Source: a virus (lineage: Duplodnaviria > Caudoviricetes). Taken from it: 56,476 bases of DNA. The translations under genes were made by a program, and so were the position numbers. Shown here in pieces: positions 12,674 through 56,476 of this stretch (the first letter of the stretch is position 1; every line of letters starts with the position of its first letter). Location of the stretch: IMG/VR virus record IMGVR_UViG_3300037180_000017, positions 1 through 56,476 of that record; one strand, 5' to 3'. The notes under the pieces were generated by a model that saw nothing but the letters and a program-made list of their open reading frames with translations, was not told the origin of the DNA and did not search any database.

Positions 12674-12740
12674 GTGAAGCTCCTAATAAAAAATCATGTT
12701 ACCGTGTTCGCCCAGATTGTCCAGAATTTTTGGAAGGGAA

Positions 12741-27774: not shown

Positions 27775-28401
27775 TTAATTAGCGATTTTTACCAGACGAT
27801 CGGTATCAATCTCGACAGATACATACCGTTGAAGCACCCCCAGAACCACAAAAAGCCTAGTCTTGGAAGCATTGCGGACTTCTTGGATATATCCCTCATA
27901 TCCTCGCAGCGACCCTGTGATGACGCGGACTGGAGTGTCCGGCAGAGCATCTTCCGGGGAAAGGGTGCGATTATCGCGGTTTTCGCTGACCAGAAAAGCT
28001 AAATCACGTTTGAAACGGCTTTGAGCGCCGGTCTTCAGGATGCGGAAAACATGCCGATGGCTCTTGACTTCACCTTCGGTTTCGGTCGGTGTCGTGACGT
28101 AGCTGGAGGATGGTGGAAGAACATGAGCCTGGAAAAACACAATACCGGGAAATACGGTCAAGTAGGTCGGTTTGTCCGCACTGGACGGCGTTTGCGATCG
28201 CCGCAGCGGCAGGAAATAATAAATACCCCGCTCCTGCATCCACCGAGCAACAGTCTTTTCCTTCTGATAGCTGGTACATGCAACCGCCCACGGAGATGTT
28301 CCAAAAATTCTGGGATCGACAGCCTTATCAGGCGTGCATTCGGCTGGTTCTTGCTCTCCCAGAAAGAGTTCCGGCGGATTTTCGTCAACCGCAAGCGCCA
28401 T
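27775..28401 (-). CDS. NusG-family (UpxY/RfaH/LoaP-like) transcription antiterminator
   Basis: NGN domain 'WAVACTSYQKEKTVA...YFLPL...VFPGIVF' and KOW 'VRVITGSLRGYEGYI...VSVEID'. Confidence 0.85.
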   Translation of the reverse strand: MALAVDENPPELFLGEQEPAECTPDKAVDPRIFGTSPWAVACTSYQKEKTVARWMQERGIYYFLPLRRSQTPSSADKPTYLTVFPGIVFFQAHVLPPSSSYVTTPTETEGEVKSHRHVFRILKTGAQSRFKRDLAFLVSENRDNRTLSPEDALPDTPVRVITGSLRGYEGYIQEVRNASKTRLFVVLGVLQRYVSVEIDTDRLVKIAN

Positions 28402-30970: not shown

Positions 30971-31065
30971 GAGAAGAATTGGTTTTTAACTTTCTGTATG
31001 TGGTGAGGGGTTCCGCCCTGGCGTTAGGTTTCCGTTAGCGCCGTAAACCGGGGGGGCTTACCTCT

Positions 31066-31149
31066 CATGCTCCATGCGCCATGCGCCATGCTCCATGCTC
31101 CATGCTCCATGCTCCATGCGCCATGCTCCATGCTCCATGCACCATGCTC
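31066..31149. repeat. 12 x 7-bp tandem repeat CATGC(T/G/A)C
   Basis: Read directly; lies between the divergent promoters. Confidence 0.95.
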
Positions 31150-31181
31150 CAGAATTTTTGGAAGATTATAAAAATCTTCTC

Positions 31182-36244: not shown

Positions 36245-37201
36245 ATGGACATTGAAGATGAAATTTTGCGAGATGCAAACGGGAACGTGGCCACAGTTAC
36301 TTATTGGGGAAATAAAGAAAAAGCGCAGAAATCGCTTGATTCTCTGAGGGACTGTTCGGGCTGTTTGGACTGTTCGGACTGTTCGCGCTGTTCGGACTGT
36401 TCGGGCTGTTTGGACTGTTCGGACTGTTCGGGCTGTTCGGACTGTTCGGACTGTTCGGGCTGTTTGGACTGTTCGGACTGTTCGAGCTGTTCGAGCTGTT
36501 CGCGCTGTTCGCGCTGTTTGGACTGTTCGGACTGTTCGCGCTGTTCGCGCTGTTCGGGCTGTTCGGGCTGTTCGGACTGTTCGGGCTGTTCGCGTTGTTC
36601 GGACTGTTCGGGCTGTTTGGACTGTTCGGGCTGTTCGCGCTGTTCGCGCTGTTCGGGCTGTTCGGGCTGTTCGGACTGTTCGGGCTGTTCGCGTTGTTCG
36701 GACTGTTCGGGCTGTTTGGACTGTTCGGACTGTTCGCGCTGTTCGGGCTGTTTGGACTGTTCGGACTGTTCGCGCTGTTCGCGCTGTTCGGGCTGTTCGC
36801 GCTGTTCGGGCTGTTCGGGCTGTTCGCGCTGTTCGGGCTGTTCGCGTTGTGACTGTTCGCGCTGTTCGGATTTAATCAAACCGAAACCGCCCCTGGTCCC
36901 TGTTGTCGAAAATCTTCACCAGAAATTGCTCGCGGCGGTCAAGGTGGAAGGCGCTCTGGACATGAGTGATTGGCACGCCTGCGAGACTACACATTGCCGC
37001 GCCGGATGGGTTATCACGCTGGCAGGGGGAGCGGGTAAAGAACTAGAGAAGTGGTTTGACACGGTACTCGCTGCCATGATGATCTATGATAAAAGCTGTC
37101 CCGGCTTCAAGATCAATCCATGCAGATTCTTTGATGGCGACGAAGAGGCCATGCGAGACATCGAGAAGTGCGCCACAAACGCAGAAAAGGCAGCCACATG
37201 A
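36245..37201 (+). CDS. Cxx-repeat protein with conserved 'DMxxWHxCETTHCRAGW' C-terminal domain
   Basis: AGGAG SD; 58 Cys in the repeat region; globular C-domain. Confidence 0.85.
   Translation: MDIEDEILRDANGNVATVTYWGNKEKAQKSLDSLRDCSGCLDCSDCSRCSDCSGCLDCSDCSGCSDCSDCSGCLDCSDCSSCSSCSRCSRCLDCSDCSRCSRCSGCSGCSDCSGCSRCSDCSGCLDCSGCSRCSRCSGCSGCSDCSGCSRCSDCSGCLDCSDCSRCSGCLDCSDCSRCSRCSGCSRCSGCSGCSRCSGCSRCDCSRCSDLIKPKPPLVPVVENLHQKLLAAVKVEGALDMSDWHACETTHCRAGWVITLAGGAGKELEKWFDTVLAAMMIYDKSCPGFKINPCRFFDGDEEAMRDIEKCATNAEKAAT
36353..36871 (+). repeat. Coding 9-bp tandem repeat (TGTTYGVRC, 57 units plus one 6-bp unit)
   Basis: Encodes CSG/CSD/CSR/CLD/CSS. Confidence 0.95.
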
Positions 37202-39828: not shown

Positions 39829-39976
39829 TGCGAATGGAAGTGCTGGATATTTTGATCGCTTGTGAGCGGGGGGGGCGACTTCGTGATGAGTTTATTAAAT
39901 GAGGTCACAGGGCCTTGGGGTGGCTCGCGCCACGGCTGCGCAGTGGGGTTAATCCAGAATTTTTGGAAAAAGTGTG

Positions 39977-40025
39977 AAATTTCACACTTTTCCTATTGAC
40001 GCTGCTGTGTCTTGTCGATTATACT
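39977..40025 (+). promoter_or_regulatory. Promoter with upstream palindrome (leaderless)
   Basis: AAATTT-N13-TTGACG-N18-TATACT, 6 nt before GTG 40032. Confidence 0.65.
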
Positions 40026-40031
40026 ACCAGC

Positions 40032-40664
40032 GTGCAATTCGAGAAGGTTAGCAACAAGGCTTGGATCGCTTATGATAAGGCCGACACTTACGAAATTATT
40101 CGTGGTAAACGCCGAGATGGGCATGTCTTCGCCGCCTTCAAGAACGTGCATATCATCATCGGTATTGAAAAGAGCTTTGAAGCCGCTGAACAAGTGTGCC
40201 ATGCTGAGTGCGGCGTACAATGCTGGGCCAGCAACAATTCGGAGAATGAAGAGAAAAACATGCGGGCCAAGGCGGAGCGCCAAGCAAAATCGTTCTTACC
40301 AGCCATGCGGATAATAACGCCGGGTCGTCCCAAACTGTATCGTGGTAAAAAAGACCGGAGCAAAGAAGATGATCGAAGTCAGATCAACAGCCAAGAAACT
40401 AACAGGCCCAGCGCATACAGCGAGTCACGAAGAGATTCAAGCGGCAATGCTGGGCAAGCTGCAAGCACGGAACATTCGGGGCAATCGTCAGCAGACCAAG
40501 TTAGTACAGAAAGGCCGCAGCGGAGTGCCGGCAGGTCGGCCCTTGGGAACTTCAACAGGTCTTCCGGTATATCTGGCGATCGTGTTCACGCTTCAGCAAA
40601 ACGAGAAAGCTCCGAAGAACCGGAAACTGACCGACCAGAAATTAGCGGAGTGGATGCGGTCTGA
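40032..40664 (+). CDS. Hypothetical protein (3' half overlaps next gene)
   Basis: Leaderless GTG; the first ~100 aa look protein-like. Confidence 0.45.
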   Translation: MQFEKVSNKAWIAYDKADTYEIIRGKRRDGHVFAAFKNVHIIIGIEKSFEAAEQVCHAECGVQCWASNNSENEEKNMRAKAERQAKSFLPAMRIITPGRPKLYRGKKDRSKEDDRSQINSQETNRPSAYSESRRDSSGNAGQAASTEHSGQSSADQVSTERPQRSAGRSALGNFNRSSGISGDRVHASAKRESSEEPETDRPEISGVDAV

Positions 40665-40836
40665 GTTTCCTGGAAGAGACACAAAGTTCTGGGACGGAAT
40701 CCAGAATATGCGAACGAATTACAACATCGGGAAATACACCAAAGGAATGATCCCGAAGTTACAAAGCCATCGGTACGATAGTGGCGGCGAGTGCATCGAT
40801 CCAAAGTATAAACGCCGCAAGACAAGCAAGCATTAG
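40369..40836 (+). CDS. Basic putative DNA-binding protein
   Basis: K/R-rich; 'LTDQKLAEWMRSEFPGR...R.NYN...SHRY'. Confidence 0.7.
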   Translation: MIEVRSTAKKLTGPAHTASHEEIQAAMLGKLQARNIRGNRQQTKLVQKGRSGVPAGRPLGTSTGLPVYLAIVFTLQQNEKAPKNRKLTDQKLAEWMRSEFPGRDTKFWDGIQNMRTNYNIGKYTKGMIPKLQSHRYDSGGECIDPKYKRRKTSKH

Positions 40837-40955
40837 AGTGTAGCTCAGGTGGCTAGAGCGTTCCGAACCCGGCAAGTTGCGAATCACCACGATACTCTCG
40901 TGCTGGCAAACTATCCGGGTAGGGAAGGTCAGAGGTTCAAGTCCTCTCACCCTAT
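40834..40955 (+). ncRNA. tRNA-like RNA (tRNA-Pro-like scaffold) with a 48-nt hairpin insert in the anticodon arm
   Basis: Acceptor TAGAGTG/CACCCTA (one mismatch), D-arm GCTC-AGGTGGCTA-GAGC, variable AGGTC, T-arm AGAGG-TTCAAGT-CCTCT. No encoded CCA. Confidence 0.75.
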
Positions 40956-41017
40956 TTCACGTCTTACAATGTGTGAGACGAATTTAGCGGCTAAGCCGCA
41001 CTGCAAAGGAGAATCAA

Positions 41018-42064
41018 ATGTCTGCTGCTACAAAGATTGCTGTGGCGGTCGCCGCCTACAAGCATGTCGGGGAGTTCGACCCCAAGGATGTTATCGCCGA
41101 CGCCAAGGAAAACACCCGCAAGGTGTCCCAAGCCGACGTGGCTTCGATGATGGCAAGCATCGAGAAGCATGGTCAGCTTCAGCCCGTCAAGGTGTTCATC
41201 ACCGACAAAGGGAAGCCCAAGTTGGTGTACGGGTTTACGCGGCTCTTTGCCATCGCAAAACACAACGAGAAGAATCCGGATCACCAACTGAAGGTGCGTG
41301 CGGAGATTGTGTCAGCGCAGGAAGCCAAGGCCGCATACCAGATGTCGGTGGTCGAGAACTACCAACGGAAGAACCCAGACCCGATTGAACTGGCCGAAAA
41401 CCAGCGGGCTATGCTGGAAGACTTCGGTATGAGCGAAGAGGAAGTTGCCGGCGTCTTCGGGTGGAACGGAACCGATGGTGTTGAGCGGCTTCGTACTTCT
41501 CAAAAGCTGCTCAAGCTCCCAGCCGCCACGCGCAAATTGGTTTCGACACGGGAACTTCCGACCGTGGCCGCTTTGGAACTGATCGGTTTGTCTGAAAAGG
41601 AGCAAGTCAGCATTATTAAGAATGCGGATCGGTTGGGCACGGGTCGGATCAAAGGCGAAAGTGTCCGCAAGGCATCACGCGCCAAAAAAACCCAAAAGGG
41701 CGGTGATCCCGATAAGGCGATCCCCGTAACCCGCAGCACGATCGTCGATCTCTTTGTCAGTTTGACTGGCCCTGGCGAAGATGCTCCGGTTCGCACGCTG
41801 TTCTCGAAGCTCGAAGCATTCGCCCAAGGCAAGGTGACTCATGCCACGATGGAAAAGATGGCTCGTTCAATGGGCGGCCTGATTAAAGACCCTAAAGCCG
41901 CTCCGAAACCCGAAACGCCTGCCATCAGCGGCGATACCGGGAAAAAGAAGGTCAAGGTCGTGAAGAAAGCAGTGGCGACAAAGACGGCAGCGCCCACAGC
42001 AGCGCCGACACCCGCACCTATTGCTGATCCCGCGGAACCAGAACCCGAATTGGTGACAGCTTAA
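41018..42064 (+). CDS. parB: ParB/Spo0J-family protein
   Basis: 'SIEKHGQLQPV', 'LVYGFTRLFA' (GxxR), 'ENYQRKNPDPIELA', HTH 'FGMSEEEVAGVFG'; AAGGAG SD. Confidence 0.88.
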   Translation: MSAATKIAVAVAAYKHVGEFDPKDVIADAKENTRKVSQADVASMMASIEKHGQLQPVKVFITDKGKPKLVYGFTRLFAIAKHNEKNPDHQLKVRAEIVSAQEAKAAYQMSVVENYQRKNPDPIELAENQRAMLEDFGMSEEEVAGVFGWNGTDGVERLRTSQKLLKLPAATRKLVSTRELPTVAALELIGLSEKEQVSIIKNADRLGTGRIKGESVRKASRAKKTQKGGDPDKAIPVTRSTIVDLFVSLTGPGEDAPVRTLFSKLEAFAQGKVTHATMEKMARSMGGLIKDPKAAPKPETPAISGDTGKKKVKVVKKAVATKTAAPTAAPTPAPIADPAEPEPELVTA

Positions 42065-43089: not shown

Positions 43090-44495
43090 GACAGCCTAAA
43101 CCATATCAACTTCCAGCCCTAAAATATCTGCGAACGCATCGCTTAGCGTTCTTAGGAATGGAGAAACGACTTGGCAAGACCTTTTGTGCGTGTCAATGGG
43201 CCAAGTTCCATAGCGCTGCCCGCGTATTAGTGGTTGCTCCATTATCAGCTATCCCTGGATGGCTAGATGAGATCGAGGCCGACAAGGAAGACATCGCTTG
43301 GGACTTAACCAACCACACCAACCTGAAACAGTGGGTCGAAGCTGAAGGCGACTTGCCCGGGCGGTTCTTCATTACCAACCCTCAAGCGTTGTTTAGACCC
43401 TCCCGTGGAAACGATCTTGGACCTTCCCCCAGAGAGACAGCCCTGTATCCGTGGAGCGCCGTGATCTGGGATGAACTGACCACTATCTATAACGCGCAAA
43501 GTCAGATCAATAAGGTTGCCCGTTTGTGTCTGGGGGATATTCCGCTGCGGCTGGGACTTTCCGGGGAATATGCCCCTGAAACTCCGCTTAACATCTTTGA
43601 ACAAATGCGGTGGGTGTTCGGATCGTTCATGGGCTTCCAGAATTTTTGGAAGTGGCGTAACGCTAACTTTCAAGAGCTTTATTACGATTGGATTCCAAAG
43701 CCGGGCCGCAAGATCGAGATTCGCCGCGTGATTGAAGAGCGGTGTTTTATCCTTTCCAGAAAATCAGCCGGCGTCGTTAATGAGATAGCGTTTGAAAAAC
43801 GTTGCTGTAAGCTGCCGACTGAGATCCAGAGGGTGTACGATCATGCTGAGGTGTATTTTGAGATTCCACCCAACCGCAGACACGGTCTTGCTCGCACAAC
43901 TTTCACAGCTTATGTTCCAGTGCTGCGGAACTGGCTTGTTCAGATTGCTGGCGGCTACCCTAAGTGTTTTGAGCATTTATACAGCGATCACAAGCTGAAG
44001 CTGCTCTGGGAAATCATTCAAGAACATCACACCGAGCAACTTGTGGTGTCTTTCCGTCACAATCTGGAGATAGCACACGCTGCTGAGTTCTTGAAGAAAA
44101 AGCGGATTACAGCGACGATCATTCAAGGAGGGATAGATGTACCTGAAAGACGTAAACGCTGCTCAGCGTTCGCGGCAGGGCGGTTCCAGGTCATTCTAAA
44201 GCAGGCTAAGGTGCATTTTGGGATGAATCTGGCTGCTGCCGACACAATGATTCGGTACAGCATTTCCGATGAGTATAAGGATGTGTCACAAGATATGGAT
44301 AGGATTATCCACCCAGAGAAAAAGCGACCGCTGTTATACATCGATCTGGTGACGGTCAATACGGTAGATGAAGACCTCCATGCTGCCGCCACCATCGACA
44401 AACCGCTGCAAGCAAGATACTGGATGCAGAAGATTCAAACATTGGGGTTGTTGCGAGCTAAGTGCAAATTGCTAAAGGAGCAACAATGTATTTAG
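43086..44495 (+). CDS. SNF2-like (SF2) helicase
   Basis: Q-motif 'PYQ', 'RLGKT', 'LVVAP', 'IWDELT', 'LSGE', 'GMNL', 'QDMDRI' (motifs II and VI diverged). Confidence 0.85.
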   Translation: MRQPKPYQLPALKYLRTHRLAFLGMEKRLGKTFCACQWAKFHSAARVLVVAPLSAIPGWLDEIEADKEDIAWDLTNHTNLKQWVEAEGDLPGRFFITNPQALFRPSRGNDLGPSPRETALYPWSAVIWDELTTIYNAQSQINKVARLCLGDIPLRLGLSGEYAPETPLNIFEQMRWVFGSFMGFQNFWKWRNANFQELYYDWIPKPGRKIEIRRVIEERCFILSRKSAGVVNEIAFEKRCCKLPTEIQRVYDHAEVYFEIPPNRRHGLARTTFTAYVPVLRNWLVQIAGGYPKCFEHLYSDHKLKLLWEIIQEHHTEQLVVSFRHNLEIAHAAEFLKKKRITATIIQGGIDVPERRKRCSAFAAGRFQVILKQAKVHFGMNLAAADTMIRYSISDEYKDVSQDMDRIIHPEKKRPLLYIDLVTVNTVDEDLHAAATIDKPLQARYWMQKIQTLGLLRAKCKLLKEQQCI

Positions 44496-49994: not shown

Positions 49995-52184
49995 ATGGCG
50001 ATTTTGATTCCAAAGCATCGACACTTCATTGACGGCGCTCGGATATTTTATGACACAGAAACCACAGGAAAGTATGCGTGGAAGGGTGATCGACCTTTTG
50101 CGTTCTCTTTCTATAACGAAGCTGGCGACAGTAAAACATTTGAGTTTGAAGTTGATCCCCTCACACGCAAACCAACAATAGTTCCAAAAATTCTGGAATC
50201 CGTCAAACGTCTCATGGAAGACGATACGGTTGCTAAAGCCGGATTTAACGAACCGTTTGACGCTGCAATGTTGTCGATCCCTCATGGAATCACGGTACGC
50301 GGACGCCGCGACGACGTGATGTGGATGTCTCAGATCTGCAACTCTGCCGAGCATAAACACGCTCTGAAACCCCTTGCCGATAAATACACCAAGAACTTAA
50401 CGGGTGAGCTTCGCCTGGATACTGACGATGAAGAAGAGCTTGGCATCGCGGTTAAGGCTTGCCGATTACAAGTCCGTAAGCTCGGATGGAAGATCGCCAA
50501 GGAAGAAACCGGGGAAGGTAAGGACGACAAGGTTTACAAAGCCGATTACTGGCTTCCTGCCGCCGTATCTCGATTAGCCCCTCCAGAAGTACGTAGACCG
50601 CTTCTGGCACGGTTCCCCAGATTATCCACGCTCGCTAATGTCTATGCAACAAAAGATTCTTTGCGAACAATGCTTCTGTTTTTCATGTTTTGCAATGTCA
50701 TGGATGAGGAAAATTTGTGGGAAGTATATGAGCGGGAAATACGCATGGCCCCGGTAACACAGCGGTCGGAGCGGGTGGGCATGAGAATCTTTCCAGAACG
50801 GTGCGATCTTCTGGGAAGAGAATGTCAGACTCGAATGCGTGATCTTCGCATTGAACTCTCCAGAATTTTTGGAGATTTCAATGCTGAGGTTCCTGGAAGT
50901 CGTATTGCTAAATTCATGCACAGTCCCAAGCCGGATGGTCTTGGTTTGCCGGTTCTATCTCGAACGGAAAAGACCCATGATCCGTCCACAAATAAGCAAA
51001 CTCTTGAGTGGATGATACCGCTCGTGGATGCTGTAACTGGGGAAGATAAAAATCCGCTTCGTAAAAATCTTGAGTTTGATCGTCACAATAAGGTGTGGAA
51101 TCACTACATCCGGAAGTTTCAGTCTCATGCTGTTGCTGACGGGTCGGGACAGTTAATTATTCATACTAACTTTCGACAGATTGGAGCAACTACCGGGCGC
51201 ATGAGCATCAGCGGTATTCCACTTCATCAGATACCTAAACGGGCTAAAGAAGGCGACATAATGAAGCGGGCGAGATATCCGCTTGGACCGCGTAAGGGAT
51301 GTGTGTGGATTCACAACGACTTCAAAAGCATTGAACCGCGTATATTGGCTGAAGAGGCGGACGAGAAAGATATCCTTCGGGTATTTAATGATGGCGAAAT
51401 CTGTAACTCTGTTGAAGGTGGATGGACGCACGACCCGTATGAGATTCTTGTGGATCGTGTAGCCTTTGCGACTAAAAAAACGCGGGAATATCTGGACGGG
51501 TTGTTTGAGGCTCGCGGTGGCGCTCGTCAAGTCTGCAAGATCAACTTCCTTGGATGGACCTATGGAGAGGGGATACGAGCATTGGCTGGTCAGATGGGCT
51601 GCTCTTACGACGAAGCCGCTCAGATTATCCACGCACTTCAAACAGCATTTGGCGGTGTTGGACCGTTCATGCAGCAAATGCAGCGCATCGCAGAACGAGA
51701 TGGATTTATTCGCAACCGCTACGGGCGTAAGTGCATGATTCCGCGACCGGCCCGTATCTGGGATGGTGAGTCGGAGGCGTGGGTCTGGGTCAAGTTCTGG
51801 TACAAAGCAACCAATTATTTAATCCAGGGAACTGCCGCCGATATGTTAAAAGAAGCGGCTATTCGTCTGGGTGGGGAAGCTCGTTATTACGACCGTGGTG
51901 GGACACGGCACGAATGCTCCGGGGGCTATCTCAAAGGCTCTGGTGCTGAAATACTTTTGTATATTCACGATGAGGTCATTACGGAAGTCCCTATCAAGCT
52001 GGCGGTCGGCAATGAGAAATTCGTGCGCGGCATCGGAGACTGTATGGCTGACAACCAAGGACGATTCACCAAGGTTGCAACTCCAGTGGATACTAAGGTG
52101 ACTTGGAACTCGTGGAGCGATCCTGAGCCAGTTGAAACATTATGGGGAGCGTCCAAAGAACAACCTCAGTTAGTGGAGGCGTAA
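49995..52184 (+). CDS. polA: DNA polymerase family A with 3'-5' exonuclease
   Basis: Exo 'YDTETTG', 'FNEPFD', 'YATKD'; 'TTGRMS'; motif A 'DFKSIEPR', B 'RQVCKINFLGWTYG', C 'IHDEV'; 'NYLIQGTAAD'. Confidence 0.95.
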   Translation: MAILIPKHRHFIDGARIFYDTETTGKYAWKGDRPFAFSFYNEAGDSKTFEFEVDPLTRKPTIVPKILESVKRLMEDDTVAKAGFNEPFDAAMLSIPHGITVRGRRDDVMWMSQICNSAEHKHALKPLADKYTKNLTGELRLDTDDEEELGIAVKACRLQVRKLGWKIAKEETGEGKDDKVYKADYWLPAAVSRLAPPEVRRPLLARFPRLSTLANVYATKDSLRTMLLFFMFCNVMDEENLWEVYEREIRMAPVTQRSERVGMRIFPERCDLLGRECQTRMRDLRIELSRIFGDFNAEVPGSRIAKFMHSPKPDGLGLPVLSRTEKTHDPSTNKQTLEWMIPLVDAVTGEDKNPLRKNLEFDRHNKVWNHYIRKFQSHAVADGSGQLIIHTNFRQIGATTGRMSISGIPLHQIPKRAKEGDIMKRARYPLGPRKGCVWIHNDFKSIEPRILAEEADEKDILRVFNDGEICNSVEGGWTHDPYEILVDRVAFATKKTREYLDGLFEARGGARQVCKINFLGWTYGEGIRALAGQMGCSYDEAAQIIHALQTAFGGVGPFMQQMQRIAERDGFIRNRYGRKCMIPRPARIWDGESEAWVWVKFWYKATNYLIQGTAADMLKEAAIRLGGEARYYDRGGTRHECSGGYLKGSGAEILLYIHDEVITEVPIKLAVGNEKFVRGIGDCMADNQGRFTKVATPVDTKVTWNSWSDPEPVETLWGASKEQPQLVEA

Positions 52185-55073: not shown

Positions 55074-55814
55074 TTAAGGCTTCTGACTGGTTGGGAGTAT
55101 GCCAGAACCCTTCTTAACGGGCTGTGTGGCTGAGATCATGAAATTAGCAGAGGTGATAGTTTGGGAAGTGTTAGGTGAACTCCCAGAATTTTTGGAAGTG
55201 ACCAACGCCAGATAGCTCTGGACCTGTGGGAGTGCGAACAGCTTGATTTGATTCCACCCATGATCTGTGATTGCACTGAGCAGTGCATATTCTGGCTGAC
55301 CAATTAAATCATGTACATGGTTGTGCCACTTAAAAGACCAGAACTGATAAGCCTCTAAGCTGGAGCAATCAGGCGGGTTCTCATCCACATACGCCTGGGC
55401 TTCCGAAAGACATGGATTGCAGCCCATCAGCTTTAGAATCTCCTTTACTCCTTCCAGAGAAGGCGGCATGAGATTGTGGATAGCTTTCCAGATCGCTTGA
55501 CCTTGAAAGCCTGTGATCCGTGAATTGCCGGCCATTTTAGGATGCTGGACAGTAGGATTGATTTGAGTGGGTTTAACGGAAGCTGTTGGCTTGGAAACAG
55601 GTTTGACTGGAATAGCAACAGAGGCTGCTTGACTGCCTGAAAAAACACAACTGGCTATGTTGGTCTGGTTTTGCTGGAAGAAAGCGGTCGTCACGTTGTA
55701 GTAACAAAGTGATTTGTCCGCAGAATGGTCAGCGGCGTTCATGGCATAGAACGATCCTTGCTTGGGAATTGCCTTGATACAACTGGTGAGGTAGGGTTGA
55801 CTGAGATCAGGCAT
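55074..55814 (-). CDS. Erv1/Alr-like (FAD-dependent sulfhydryl oxidase) domain protein
   Basis: 'GQAIWKAIH', 'MGCNPC', 'NPPD', 'FWSFKWHNHVHDLIGQP'; overlaps the stop of the Cys-rich tail gene. Confidence 0.75.
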   Translation of the reverse strand: MPDLSQPYLTSCIKAIPKQGSFYAMNAADHSADKSLCYYNVTTAFFQQNQTNIASCVFSGSQAASVAIPVKPVSKPTASVKPTQINPTVQHPKMAGNSRITGFQGQAIWKAIHNLMPPSLEGVKEILKLMGCNPCLSEAQAYVDENPPDCSSLEAYQFWSFKWHNHVHDLIGQPEYALLSAITDHGWNQIKLFALPQVQSYLALVTSKNSGSSPNTSQTITSANFMISATQPVKKGSGILPTSQKP

Positions 55815-56476
55815 AAGTAAACTCCCATGTCAAGATCGCTACAGCGTTCAAAATACAATAGCCCGATATTCCGAGGTAGGTGTACTGGCAACAAGTAGCG
55901 CAGTCGGAACCTTCAAAGGTAATATCGGGGCATGGAGTTAATGCTGGATCAGCGGGAATGGTTACACTGCCCAACAATGGACTATATTCGTCGCCACCGC
56001 TCCCGCCAGAACTACCCCACTGGACCCATTCGTGATACGCCGCATCGACTCCGCTTGGAACAGAGAACGTGTAATCGTTCACTGTAGAACAATTAGCAGT
56101 TGTTGGCGGAGTATCACTGGAATCAATCCCTGCGTAGTTCCAATAAGTTGTTGTGTGGGTTAGAGGGTTAACGGGACATGCAGAGACAGTAATCTCGTAA
56201 TAACAAGCTAATGCGCTCGCATTACCTGTCGGACCAGAGCCGTCAGGTTGGTTTCCTTGAAACACGGAAATACTATTAGGATATCCGGCACTTACTGATT
56301 GATTCCCGGATAATGCCCACTGTTCTTCAAGATAAGTTTTAACGCTTGGCGTCAGTGTGGTCTGATTACACACACCGCCGCCAGCGCCGATACATTCCCA
56401 GCGATCTGTAAATGTTCCGCAAACACTAGTACCAGATAATGCAAATGGTCCCGTAAATGCGCTAACCGAGTTATAG
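55807..56476 (-). CDS. Large Cys-rich tail protein, 3' part (total ~1168 aa)
   Basis: In frame with 1..2964 through the terminal repeat. Ends ...GSDCATCCQYTYLGISGYCILNAVAILTWEFTYA*. Confidence 0.85.
   Translation of the reverse strand, partial: YNSVSAFTGPFALSGTSVCGTFTDRWECIGAGGGVCNQTTLTPSVKTYLEEQWALSGNQSVSAGYPNSISVFQGNQPDGSGPTGNASALACYYEITVSACPVNPLTHTTTYWNYAGIDSSDTPPTTANCSTVNDYTFSVPSGVDAAYHEWVQWGSSGGSGGDEYSPLLGSVTIPADPALTPCPDITFEGSDCATCCQYTYLGISGYCILNAVAILTWEFTYA
56351..56476. repeat. Terminal direct repeat, right copy
   Basis: Identical to 2-127. The reading frame is continuous across the junction. Confidence 0.95.

Follow-up and report, generated by a model that had tools for sequence, protein, structure and literature searches.

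A tRNA-shaped phage gene, probably derived from tRNA-Pro(CGG), whose anticodon loop is paired to a 48-nt insert

Transfer RNA (tRNA) genes of phages are usually read as a codon supply or as replacements for tRNAs cut by host defences. In engineered "tRNA scaffold" RNAs, an artificial design, a tRNA frame carries a foreign hairpin at the anticodon arm and is processed and protected like a tRNA. The tRNA cluster of phage T4 also specifies stable species 1 and 2 RNAs of unknown function, which we liken to the element described here in general plan and not by sequence. The tRNA genes of Lak megaphages contain short unexplained introns, termed "enigmatic" (Devoto et al. 2019, PMC6784885); in the part of that account which concerns them, the inserts are identical across cohorts and genes with and without them are aligned. 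YrlA, as presented in the relevant parts of Chen et al. (2014, PMC4201824), is a non-decoding RNA with a tRNA-like D/T elbow and a long helix, and some RNAs of this type are cut by RNase P and CCA-tailed; it is encoded beside the Ro60 (rsr) gene, bears a GNCGAAN0-1G motif and has both its ends in the Ro-binding stem. Apart from the Lak report, our literature searches listed no paper on phage tRNA mimics with a masked anticodon or on short hairpin inserts in phage genes. Here we describe a 122-nucleotide (nt) element, at positions 40834–40955 of the complete IMG/VR virus record IMGVR_UViG_3300037180_000017, that has the shape of a tRNA and carries a 48-nt insert in its anticodon arm. The window, that is, the whole stretch of DNA analysed, is this tailed-phage record of 56,476 bp.

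Anatomy of the element and its kinship to tRNA-Pro(CGG)

An earlier note on this DNA, made from its letters and open reading frames (ORFs), had described a tRNA-Pro-like RNA with the anticodon buried in an inserted hairpin. The observation itself is confirmed: the coordinates, the stems, the D and T arms, the AGGTC variable loop and the 6/7 acceptor stem are all correct in the sequence. The parts of the element are as follows.

40834–40955, + strand: whole tRNA-shaped gene, 122 nt, with no encoded CCA and with U at 40955 as discriminator
40834–40840, + strand: acceptor 5' strand TAGAGTG, its first three bases being the TAG stop of the ORF at 40342–40836
40843–40859, + strand: D arm, stem GCTC/GAGC, loop AGGTGGCTA with G18 G19
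40861–40865, + strand: anticodon-stem 5' strand TTCCG, positions 27–31
40866–40913, + strand: 48-nt insert between tRNA positions 31 and 32, a 48-column gap against five tRNA-Pro genes
40867–40872, + strand: ACCCGG, antisense to loop positions 33–38, forming six Watson-Crick pairs with 40915–40920 in the minimum free energy (MFE) fold
40875–40912, + strand: the insert's own inner hairpin, AGUUGC...GCAAACU with a 4-nt bulge GAAU and the tip CACGA-UACUC-UCGUG
40914–40920, + strand: former anticodon loop TCCGGGT, with U32, C33, CGG at 40916–40918, G37 at 40919 and U38
40921–40925, + strand: anticodon-stem 3' strand AGGGA, positions 39–43, giving G31.A39 and U28.G42
40926–40947, + strand: variable loop AGGTC (40926–40930) and T arm AGAGG-TTCAAGT-CCTCT
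40948–40954, + strand: acceptor 3' strand CACCCTA, 6/7 pairs with 40834–40840 and an A4.C69 mismatch

The halves of the anticodon stem are separated by 55 nt, the last seven of which are TCCGGGT. Read in order, the insert consists of an unpaired A, ACCCGG, CA, the 38-nt hairpin and a final A. It does bury the anticodon, as had been claimed, and the stems ACCCGG/CCGGGU, AGUU(GC)/(GC)AACU and CACGA/UCGUG are all present in the MFE fold, which pairs UUCC with GGAA in the anticodon stem, one base out of register. Arm and insert together make an irregular rod of ~66 nt and ~23 bp in place of the anticodon arm; at the DNA level the arm is an imperfect palindrome of 66 bp with block-wise symmetry. 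An open 7-nt anticodon loop with U33 and a purine at 37 on a 5-bp stem is not found in the element, in which position 33 is C and the loop is fully paired. Outside the anticodon loop every universal and tertiary position, read from the sequence, is canonical: U8, A14, G15-C48, G18 G19, A21, G26, G53-C61, U54 U55 C56 and A58, together with the contacts of G10-C25 with G45, C13-G22 with G46 and U12-A23 with A9.

The Rfam tRNA model RF00005 matched the element with 35.7 bits against a gathering threshold of 29 (E 5.6e-6 on 401 nt), a result of a local, permissive search only, since the whole-window scan at Rfam gathering thresholds missed it. The alignment covers the full model (1–71) over 40834–40955, with 58 nt where the model has 9 positions. 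Folding of the 122 nt gave an MFE of -43.3 kcal/mol (z -2.37; 6/200 shuffles as good), and that of the arm alone (40861–40926) gave -26.2 kcal/mol (z -3.77), a value reached by none of 200 shuffles. These figures bear out the claim of a real tRNA-shaped gene. Default ARAGORN did not call the element. With introns allowed, a check which the earlier note had proposed, the element was called, but as a forced Thr(CGT) gene with a 31-nt intron and a 24-nt variable arm; this model was rejected, as it needs a U.C stem mismatch and an unstructured 24-nt variable arm and ignores the homology to tRNA-Pro.

Other classes of RNA and DNA element were considered. The view that this is neither a group I intron nor a transfer-messenger RNA (tmRNA), and that CCA is not encoded, stands: the insert has 48 nt as against ~200+ nt with a P3–P8 core, there is no Rfam group I match, position 3 forms G3-C70 and not G3.U70, a 4-bp D stem is present, and ARAGORN found no tmRNA. 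Rfam matches at E up to 10 comprised tRNA and one chance small nucleolar RNA match, with no ribozyme or group I intron among them, and inspection of the element by eye disclosed no K-turn, hammerhead or YrlA motif. A dispersed palindromic mobile element, of the miniature inverted-repeat transposable (MITE) or repetitive extragenic palindromic (REP) kind, was also rejected; no further copy of the arm occurs in the window, in the related phage G001 (see below) or in 95 other phage loci, and the outer 6 bp are formed with the tRNA's own loop.

Most BLAST matches of the element in genomes sampled from four phyla were short and lay in the T arm. The metagenome-assembled genome (MAG) G002, which is titled Candidatus Aminicenantes, belongs to Acidobacteriota in GTDB. 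Nucleotides 83–119 of the element, from anticodon loop to acceptor stem, were matched at 86% in 7/401 genomes of its phylum and at 84% in 2/401 genomes of the phylum of G004, a Rhodospirillales MAG. The five loci retrieved for this segment, four of them from the phylum of G002, are all tRNA-Pro(CGG) genes. Those four (loci L247–L250, from genomes G339, G064, G364 and G103) read cggggtg-ta-gcgc-[D loop]-gcgc-g-TTCCG-TTCGGGT-CGGAA-aggcc-ggagg-ttcaaat-cctct-caccccg-a, where the element reads G-TTCCG, then 48 nt, then TCCGGGT-AGGGA-AGGTC. Its alignment with the five tRNA-Pro genes has one gap, of exactly 48 columns. Once 40866–40913 are excised the body has 60/73 identities to tRNA-Pro(CGG); six other tRNAs have 55–57 identities over 67–73 aligned positions (76–85% of those aligned). 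The TTCCG strand is identical in L247–L250 and in the tRNA-Pro of phage ESh21, and 6/7 loop bases equal those of L247–L250, position 33 being the sole difference between TCCGGGT and the TTCGGGT of the closest tRNA-Pro(CGG). The earlier description of a Pro(CGG) loop is upheld by the closest cellular tRNAs. Nucleotides 93–118 are in addition a 26-nt exact match to cellular tRNAs.

An isotype could not be read from the body arms, since 119/121 matches to these D and T arms were tRNA-Ile(GAT). The body being generic, it is the anticodon arm and the acceptor core that carry the assignment to proline, and on this comparison the element very probably derives from a proline tRNA. The acceptor end C1-G72/A73, an identity mark for prolyl-tRNA synthetase, is found in all 7 cellular tRNA-Pro genes retrieved and is absent from the element, which has U1-A72 and U73 instead.

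Stated relative to the closest tRNA-Pro(CGG), there are eight stem substitutions outside the anticodon arm. Six fall in three pairs changed on both sides (C1-G72 to U-A, G2-C71 to A-U and G12-C23 to U-A), the seventh, G49 to A, turns the G49.U65 pair into A-U, and the eighth, G4 to A, makes G4-C69 into A.C, the only broken pair among them. The anticodon arm itself has three changes, U33 to C, C39 to A and A42 to G. The first converts a G.U pair with the insert into G-C and makes the ACCCGG helix fully Watson-Crick; the other two allow UUCC to pair with GGAA by a one-base register shift, where the closest tRNA-Pro has CGGAA. The shift creates a 2x2 internal loop, in which G31 and insert base 1 lie opposite A39 and G40, and this mirrors a second 2x2 loop, such that the mismatches of the rod are confined to two regular 2x2 blocks and are not scattered. 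The junctions fixed by homology, 40865|40866 and 40913|40914, each lie mid-strand in one of these loops, on opposite strands and 1 nt 5' of the central 6-bp helix, in two-fold symmetry. The partner of the antisense 6 nt is the loop of the tRNA itself, not the far end of the insert, a match that would arise by chance about once in 4096 per register and that a self-contained palindromic mobile element would not bring with it. The substitution pattern supports the earlier argument against random decay, and we regard the anatomy and the origin of the element as well supported.

Relatives of the element and possible roles of its RNA

The features next to the element, whose positions agree with the TAG overlap upstream and the parB gene downstream that had been noted before, are these.

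40342–40836, + strand: upstream ORF, 164 aa from GTG (ATG at 40369), its stop being bases 1–3 of the element
40960–40980 and 40987–40999, + strand: two small hairpins between element and parB, read from the sequence
41018–42064, + strand: parB, a ParB-like gene (PHROG 1033, E 2.4e-15; Pfam HTH_ParB)

A blastn search with 401 nt against GenBank phages gave no match, and at E up to 10 the 145 records returned were all short half-tRNA matches, none with >=80% query cover. An exact 35-nt pattern was found 0 times in IMG/VR, and an arm-specific long-gap pattern 0 times in IMG/VR and 0 times in JGI metagenomes. A search for covariation across relatives had been proposed; among 943,717 bases, the only match to a covariance model of the arm (R1) was the arm itself. 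ParB, both as a single protein and as alignment A1, had no relative in IMG/VR or metagenomes, and there was one match to it, at 33%, in a tblastn search of phages; the same kind of search with the upstream ORF gave none, and the helicase as a single protein found no relative. The helicase alignment A2 and the upstream-ORF alignment A5 each recovered one relative only, and in both cases this was G001. Further relatives closer than G001 are known as proteins: P0002 and P0007 (on one 60,242-nt contig), P0003, P0006 and P0013.

G001 is a syntenic phage of 62,217 bp with terminal repeats and 60.4% G+C. Its identity to the window is 50% for the helicase, 44% for ParB (L237:4743-5933) and 45% for the upstream ORF (L237:4173-4661). 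In G001 the upstream ORF ends in ...YRREK-stop and is followed by an 81-nt spacer with two hairpins and then by parB; the second hairpin, GCGGC-loop-GCCGC, is common to the window and G001 (L237:4707-4721) and precedes parB in both. The window ORF is 4 codons longer (TSKH) and stops at the TAG of the element. By this comparison either the window lineage gained the element, some 135 nt, or the lineage of G001 lost it, at the very point where the upstream gene ends. At the strain level, contigs of two further studies cover the element in part: X2 (40671–40901) crosses its left junction, and X3 (40868–41112) runs from inside the insert across the right end into parB. Neither has a difference within the element; X3 has 4 in the flanking genes.

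Insert-bearing tRNA-type genes recur in phages. An IMG/VR pattern of one common D arm and T arm with 45–75 nt between them matched at least 115 contigs. Among the matches listed there are at least 88 distinct genes, at least 78 of which have at least 6/7 acceptor pairs and a full T stem; for 50 of these well-formed genes, again among the matches listed, one excision is enough to bring back a canonical arm, and for 28 it is not, a split that assumes a 5-nt variable loop. In 20 of the 50 restorable genes listed, an insert of 41–55 nt follows position 28 or 29 and so interrupts the anticodon stem on its 5' strand. This insert consists of a hairpin and a shared ACAGCAA motif and leaves the anticodon hairpin intact, with Asn GTT, Pro TGG/GGG and other anticodons (IMG/VR loci L008, L011, L005, L045, L048, L014, L047, L112 and others). 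In 14 other phage tRNA genes with hairpins we could establish no shared rule for the cut sites, the junctions being ambiguous without insert-free partners.

For the element itself no single excision yields a canonical anticodon arm. With a 5-nt or a 4-nt variable loop, all 18 excision points fail to combine U33 with a purine at position 37; with a 6-nt variable region, the only models that do combine them have at most one Watson-Crick stem pair. Exact removal of the 48 nt leaves a Pro(CGG) arm with C33, G31.A39 and U28.G42, and no other excision is better. The splice sites of archaeal and eukaryal pre-tRNAs lie in a bulge-helix-bulge, in which a central helix of 4 bp is followed, on the 3' side of either strand, by a 3-nt bulge. 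This structure was rejected for the element, which has 2x2 internal loops, a 6-bp central helix and junctions 5' of the helix, and none appeared when alternative registers were tried by hand. The junctions have a 5' stagger of 7 nt, unlike the 2-nt 3' stagger of RNase III. Among the ~50 window ORFs scanned against PHROGs or Pfam, or both, there was no RNA ligase, RtcB, kinase-phosphatase, RNase III or Ro60/TROVE family.

Our tentative preference is to see in the element an accessory gene confined to this phage lineage which specifies a non-decoding, tRNA-shaped RNA descended from tRNA-Pro(CGG). We favour it because the body has been kept under structural constraint, the three changes in the anticodon arm serve the rod and not decoding, the antisense stretch is aimed at the tRNA's own loop, the acceptor end has lost both of its tRNA-Pro marks, and the rod surpasses all 200 shuffles with no excision restoring the arm. 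The recurrence of insert-bearing genes, with 28 of the at least 78 well-formed ones listed not restorable, lends it support, as does the unchanged sequence of the element in X2 and X3. The processing, stability and role of the RNA we infer as follows. The element would be transcribed within the early/replication operon, and host tRNA enzymes would presumably excise its RNA through RNase P, 3' trimming and CCA addition. A stable tRNA look-alike would then persist, reading no codon and probably incapable of being charged with proline. One might guess that it occupies, as an unusable substrate, a host protein which grips the tRNA body and acceptor end, for example a defence nuclease or a modifier. 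The interpretation offered in the earlier note is partly supported; its decoy for anticodon nucleases is unlikely as a cleavable decoy, since the loop is fully paired, and conceivable as a non-cleavable competitor.

Several points weigh against a non-decoding RNA with a function of its own. G001 has no tRNA or tRNA-like gene anywhere in its genome and keeps the gene pair without the element, which is therefore dispensable for the flanking genes. No homologue of the insert was found in the searches above, and since less than one change is expected in 122 nt at the strain divergence seen, identity across samples says little. The listed holders of window DNA include no RNA runs; in the one RNA run examined, no contig lay on the element stretch. 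An RNase P cut at the 5' end of the element would strip the upstream mRNA of its stop codon. One acceptor pair, A4.C69, is broken. The compensatory changes of the body may predate the loss of tRNA function, and the U33C change and the antisense stretch could have originated by template switching in a quasi-palindrome, without selection.

Some of the same features would be expected of a dead gene, that is, a phage tRNA-Pro(CGG) inactivated by an insertion into the anticodon loop or a fold-back duplication there, and since then undeleted and functionless. C33 in place of the near-universal U33, the G31.A39 and A4.C69 mismatches and the changed positions 72 and 73 are in keeping with this, as are the absence of the element from G001, the lack of a relative in any collection searched, and an accidental-looking junction at which its first bases serve as the stop of an ORF 4 codons longer than that of G001. 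We nevertheless think such a relic somewhat unlikely, as the tertiary positions of the body are all intact, 7/8 of the stem substitutions outside the anticodon arm keep or improve pairing with only G4 to A breaking it, the mismatches of the rod form two regular 2x2 blocks, and the antisense stretch is aimed at the tRNA's own loop. Phage genomes, moreover, quickly delete useless DNA.

The idea of an intron-like pre-tRNA, also raised in the earlier note, fares a little differently. A nuclease and a ligase as yet undescribed for bacteria would remove the insert at 31|32 and join the two halves, to give a tRNA-Pro(CGG) able to read CCG, the phage's commonest proline codon (18.0 per 1000 codons). 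In spliced pre-tRNAs the insert typically pairs with the anticodon, the junctions here are symmetric, mid-loop and 1 nt 5' of the 6-bp helix, and one excision suffices to restore 50 of the at least 78 well-formed phage genes listed; the short tRNA introns of Lak phages, unexplained in the part of that report dealing with them (PMC6784885), are a further precedent. What makes it unlikely is that exact excision, which nothing betters, leaves C33, G31.A39 and U28.G42, that the geometry is neither that of a bulge-helix-bulge nor that of RNase III, that no ribozyme or group I match appears at E up to 10, that the ~50 ORFs scanned offer no ligase, RtcB, kinase-phosphatase or RNase III, and that the acceptor end has U1-A72 and U73 where the tRNA-Pro genes found have C1-G72 and A73. 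A genuine pre-tRNA of a bacterial virus, spliced through an undescribed symmetric route of cutting and rejoining, appears quite improbable. If true, such splicing would use the archaeal bulge-helix-bulge layout in mirror image and call for a dimeric endonuclease of a new kind together with a host ligase.

Lastly, the element might act in cis, either as a tRNA-shaped RNase P/Z site which splits or stabilises the operon mRNA or as a DNA palindrome bound by a protein such as ParB. It lies within a co-oriented gene pair without a promoter- or terminator-like site of its own on the + strand, and its arm is a block-wise symmetric, if imperfect, 66-bp DNA palindrome. A processing signal for the parB mRNA, as once suggested, is difficult to reconcile with G001, which keeps the same genes with an 81-nt spacer and no tRNA-like element, or with a 5' cut by RNase P, which would take away the stop codon of the upstream gene as well; a perfect tRNA elbow would be of no use to a DNA palindrome, and the genome has no second copy of the arm. 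We hold a role in cis to be very improbable.

The phage and the setting of the element

The window has 50.2% G+C and a completeness of 91% as estimated by CheckV. IMG/VR classes the record as linear without end repeats, despite an exact direct terminal repeat of 126 nt (2–127 = 56351–56476), and the genome is probably complete. Its replication module includes ParB, an SNF2-type helicase, an exonuclease, a Sak4-like annealing protein, a family A DNA polymerase, a primase and a UDG-family protein; the genome also has a gene for the large terminase subunit. The element is the sole tRNA-type gene, default ARAGORN finding 0 in the genome and ARAGORN with introns allowed only the element. Peat and permafrost metagenomes of three studies contain near-identical DNA. 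A search for the host by way of a DNA polymerase atlas led to viral clusters only.

All neighbouring genes are on the + strand, as is the tRNA match, which was obtained on that strand only. The upstream ORF shows coding signal in frame from ~40340 to ~40770. The promoter-like site nearest to the element is at 39996–40025. A motif of 15 bp, TCCARAAWTTYTGGA, has 22 copies in the window, in both orientations, where 0.01 are expected (for example 2976–2990, 12720–12734, 31148–31162, 39953–39967, 43636–43650 and 50859–50873). As judged by eye the copies are mostly intergenic, and the motif is probably an operator or promoter element of the phage's own. A similar palindrome, ACCGAAAATTTTGGT, occurs in G001 at the site where the window has the tRNA-like gene. 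Another palindrome, TTAGCGGCTAA, lies at 40984–40994, 24 nt upstream of the parB start; it has 1 exact copy in the window, which is not above chance, and is not conserved in G001. It bears a resemblance to the operator of the ParB-family protein KorB.

Just upstream, the coding signal moves from frame 0 (39996–40664) to frame 1 (40342–40836) near 40330–40345. The G001 homologue of the gene at 39996–40664 has 92 aa and ends in ...PKLWRGR-stop; in the window the frame stays open for ~100 further low-complexity codons and overlaps the next gene. A stop codon may have been lost here, the two genes may overlap, or the assembly may contain an indel.

Elsewhere in the window, ORF 36245–37201 contains ~50 tandem copies of a 9-nt unit (36250–36950), equivalent to a 3-residue protein repeat, and has matches to two PHROGs, both of unknown function. 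Where the structural and early gene blocks diverge, 7-nt repeats (CATGCTC/CATGCGC) form a run at 31052–31170. Two ORFs on the - strand specify domains uncommon for a phage of such size: an Erv1/Alr sulfhydryl oxidase (55074–55814, E 2.4e-6) and the N-terminal domain of NusG (27775–28401, E 1.1e-5).

Comparison with known tRNAs and tRNA-shaped RNAs

The ancestry of the element, its insertion point at 31|32 and each later substitution can be named, and all of them point away from decoding with the tRNA shape kept. Together with the other insert-bearing genes of IMG/VR this suggests that phages often reuse the tRNA frame or splice by a route new to bacteria; either one would be new biology.

Set against the bacterial tRNA-Pro(CGG) genes L247–L250, the element is alike at 60/73 positions and has a similar T arm, variable loop and acceptor core. 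It differs by the 48-nt insert at 31|32, by C33, A39 and G42, by U1-A72, A2-U71 and U73 where those genes have C1-G72, G2-C71 and A73, and by the A4.C69 mismatch.

In descriptive terms the element fits a class of short, folded phage tRNA inserts which are not group I introns and lie in the anticodon region. It shares with the Lak introns, in so far as the pertinent part of that paper describes them, a short non-group-I insert in the anticodon region with no known route of removal (PMC6784885). It differs from them in having no second copy and in that excision restores no canonical loop, the comparison being one of descriptions and not of insert sequences (PMC6784885, same part).

We rejected a YrlA or other Y RNA, there being no Ro60/TROVE in the ORFs scanned, no motif and no Rfam family other than tRNA. 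With YrlA, as the portion of the paper on its structure depicts it, the element nevertheless has in common a tRNA-like D/T elbow joined to a long helix (PMC4201824). In contrast to the YrlA so described, the ends of the element form a normal acceptor stem, and the motif is absent, the corresponding sequence being UGCGAAUC at 40878–40885.

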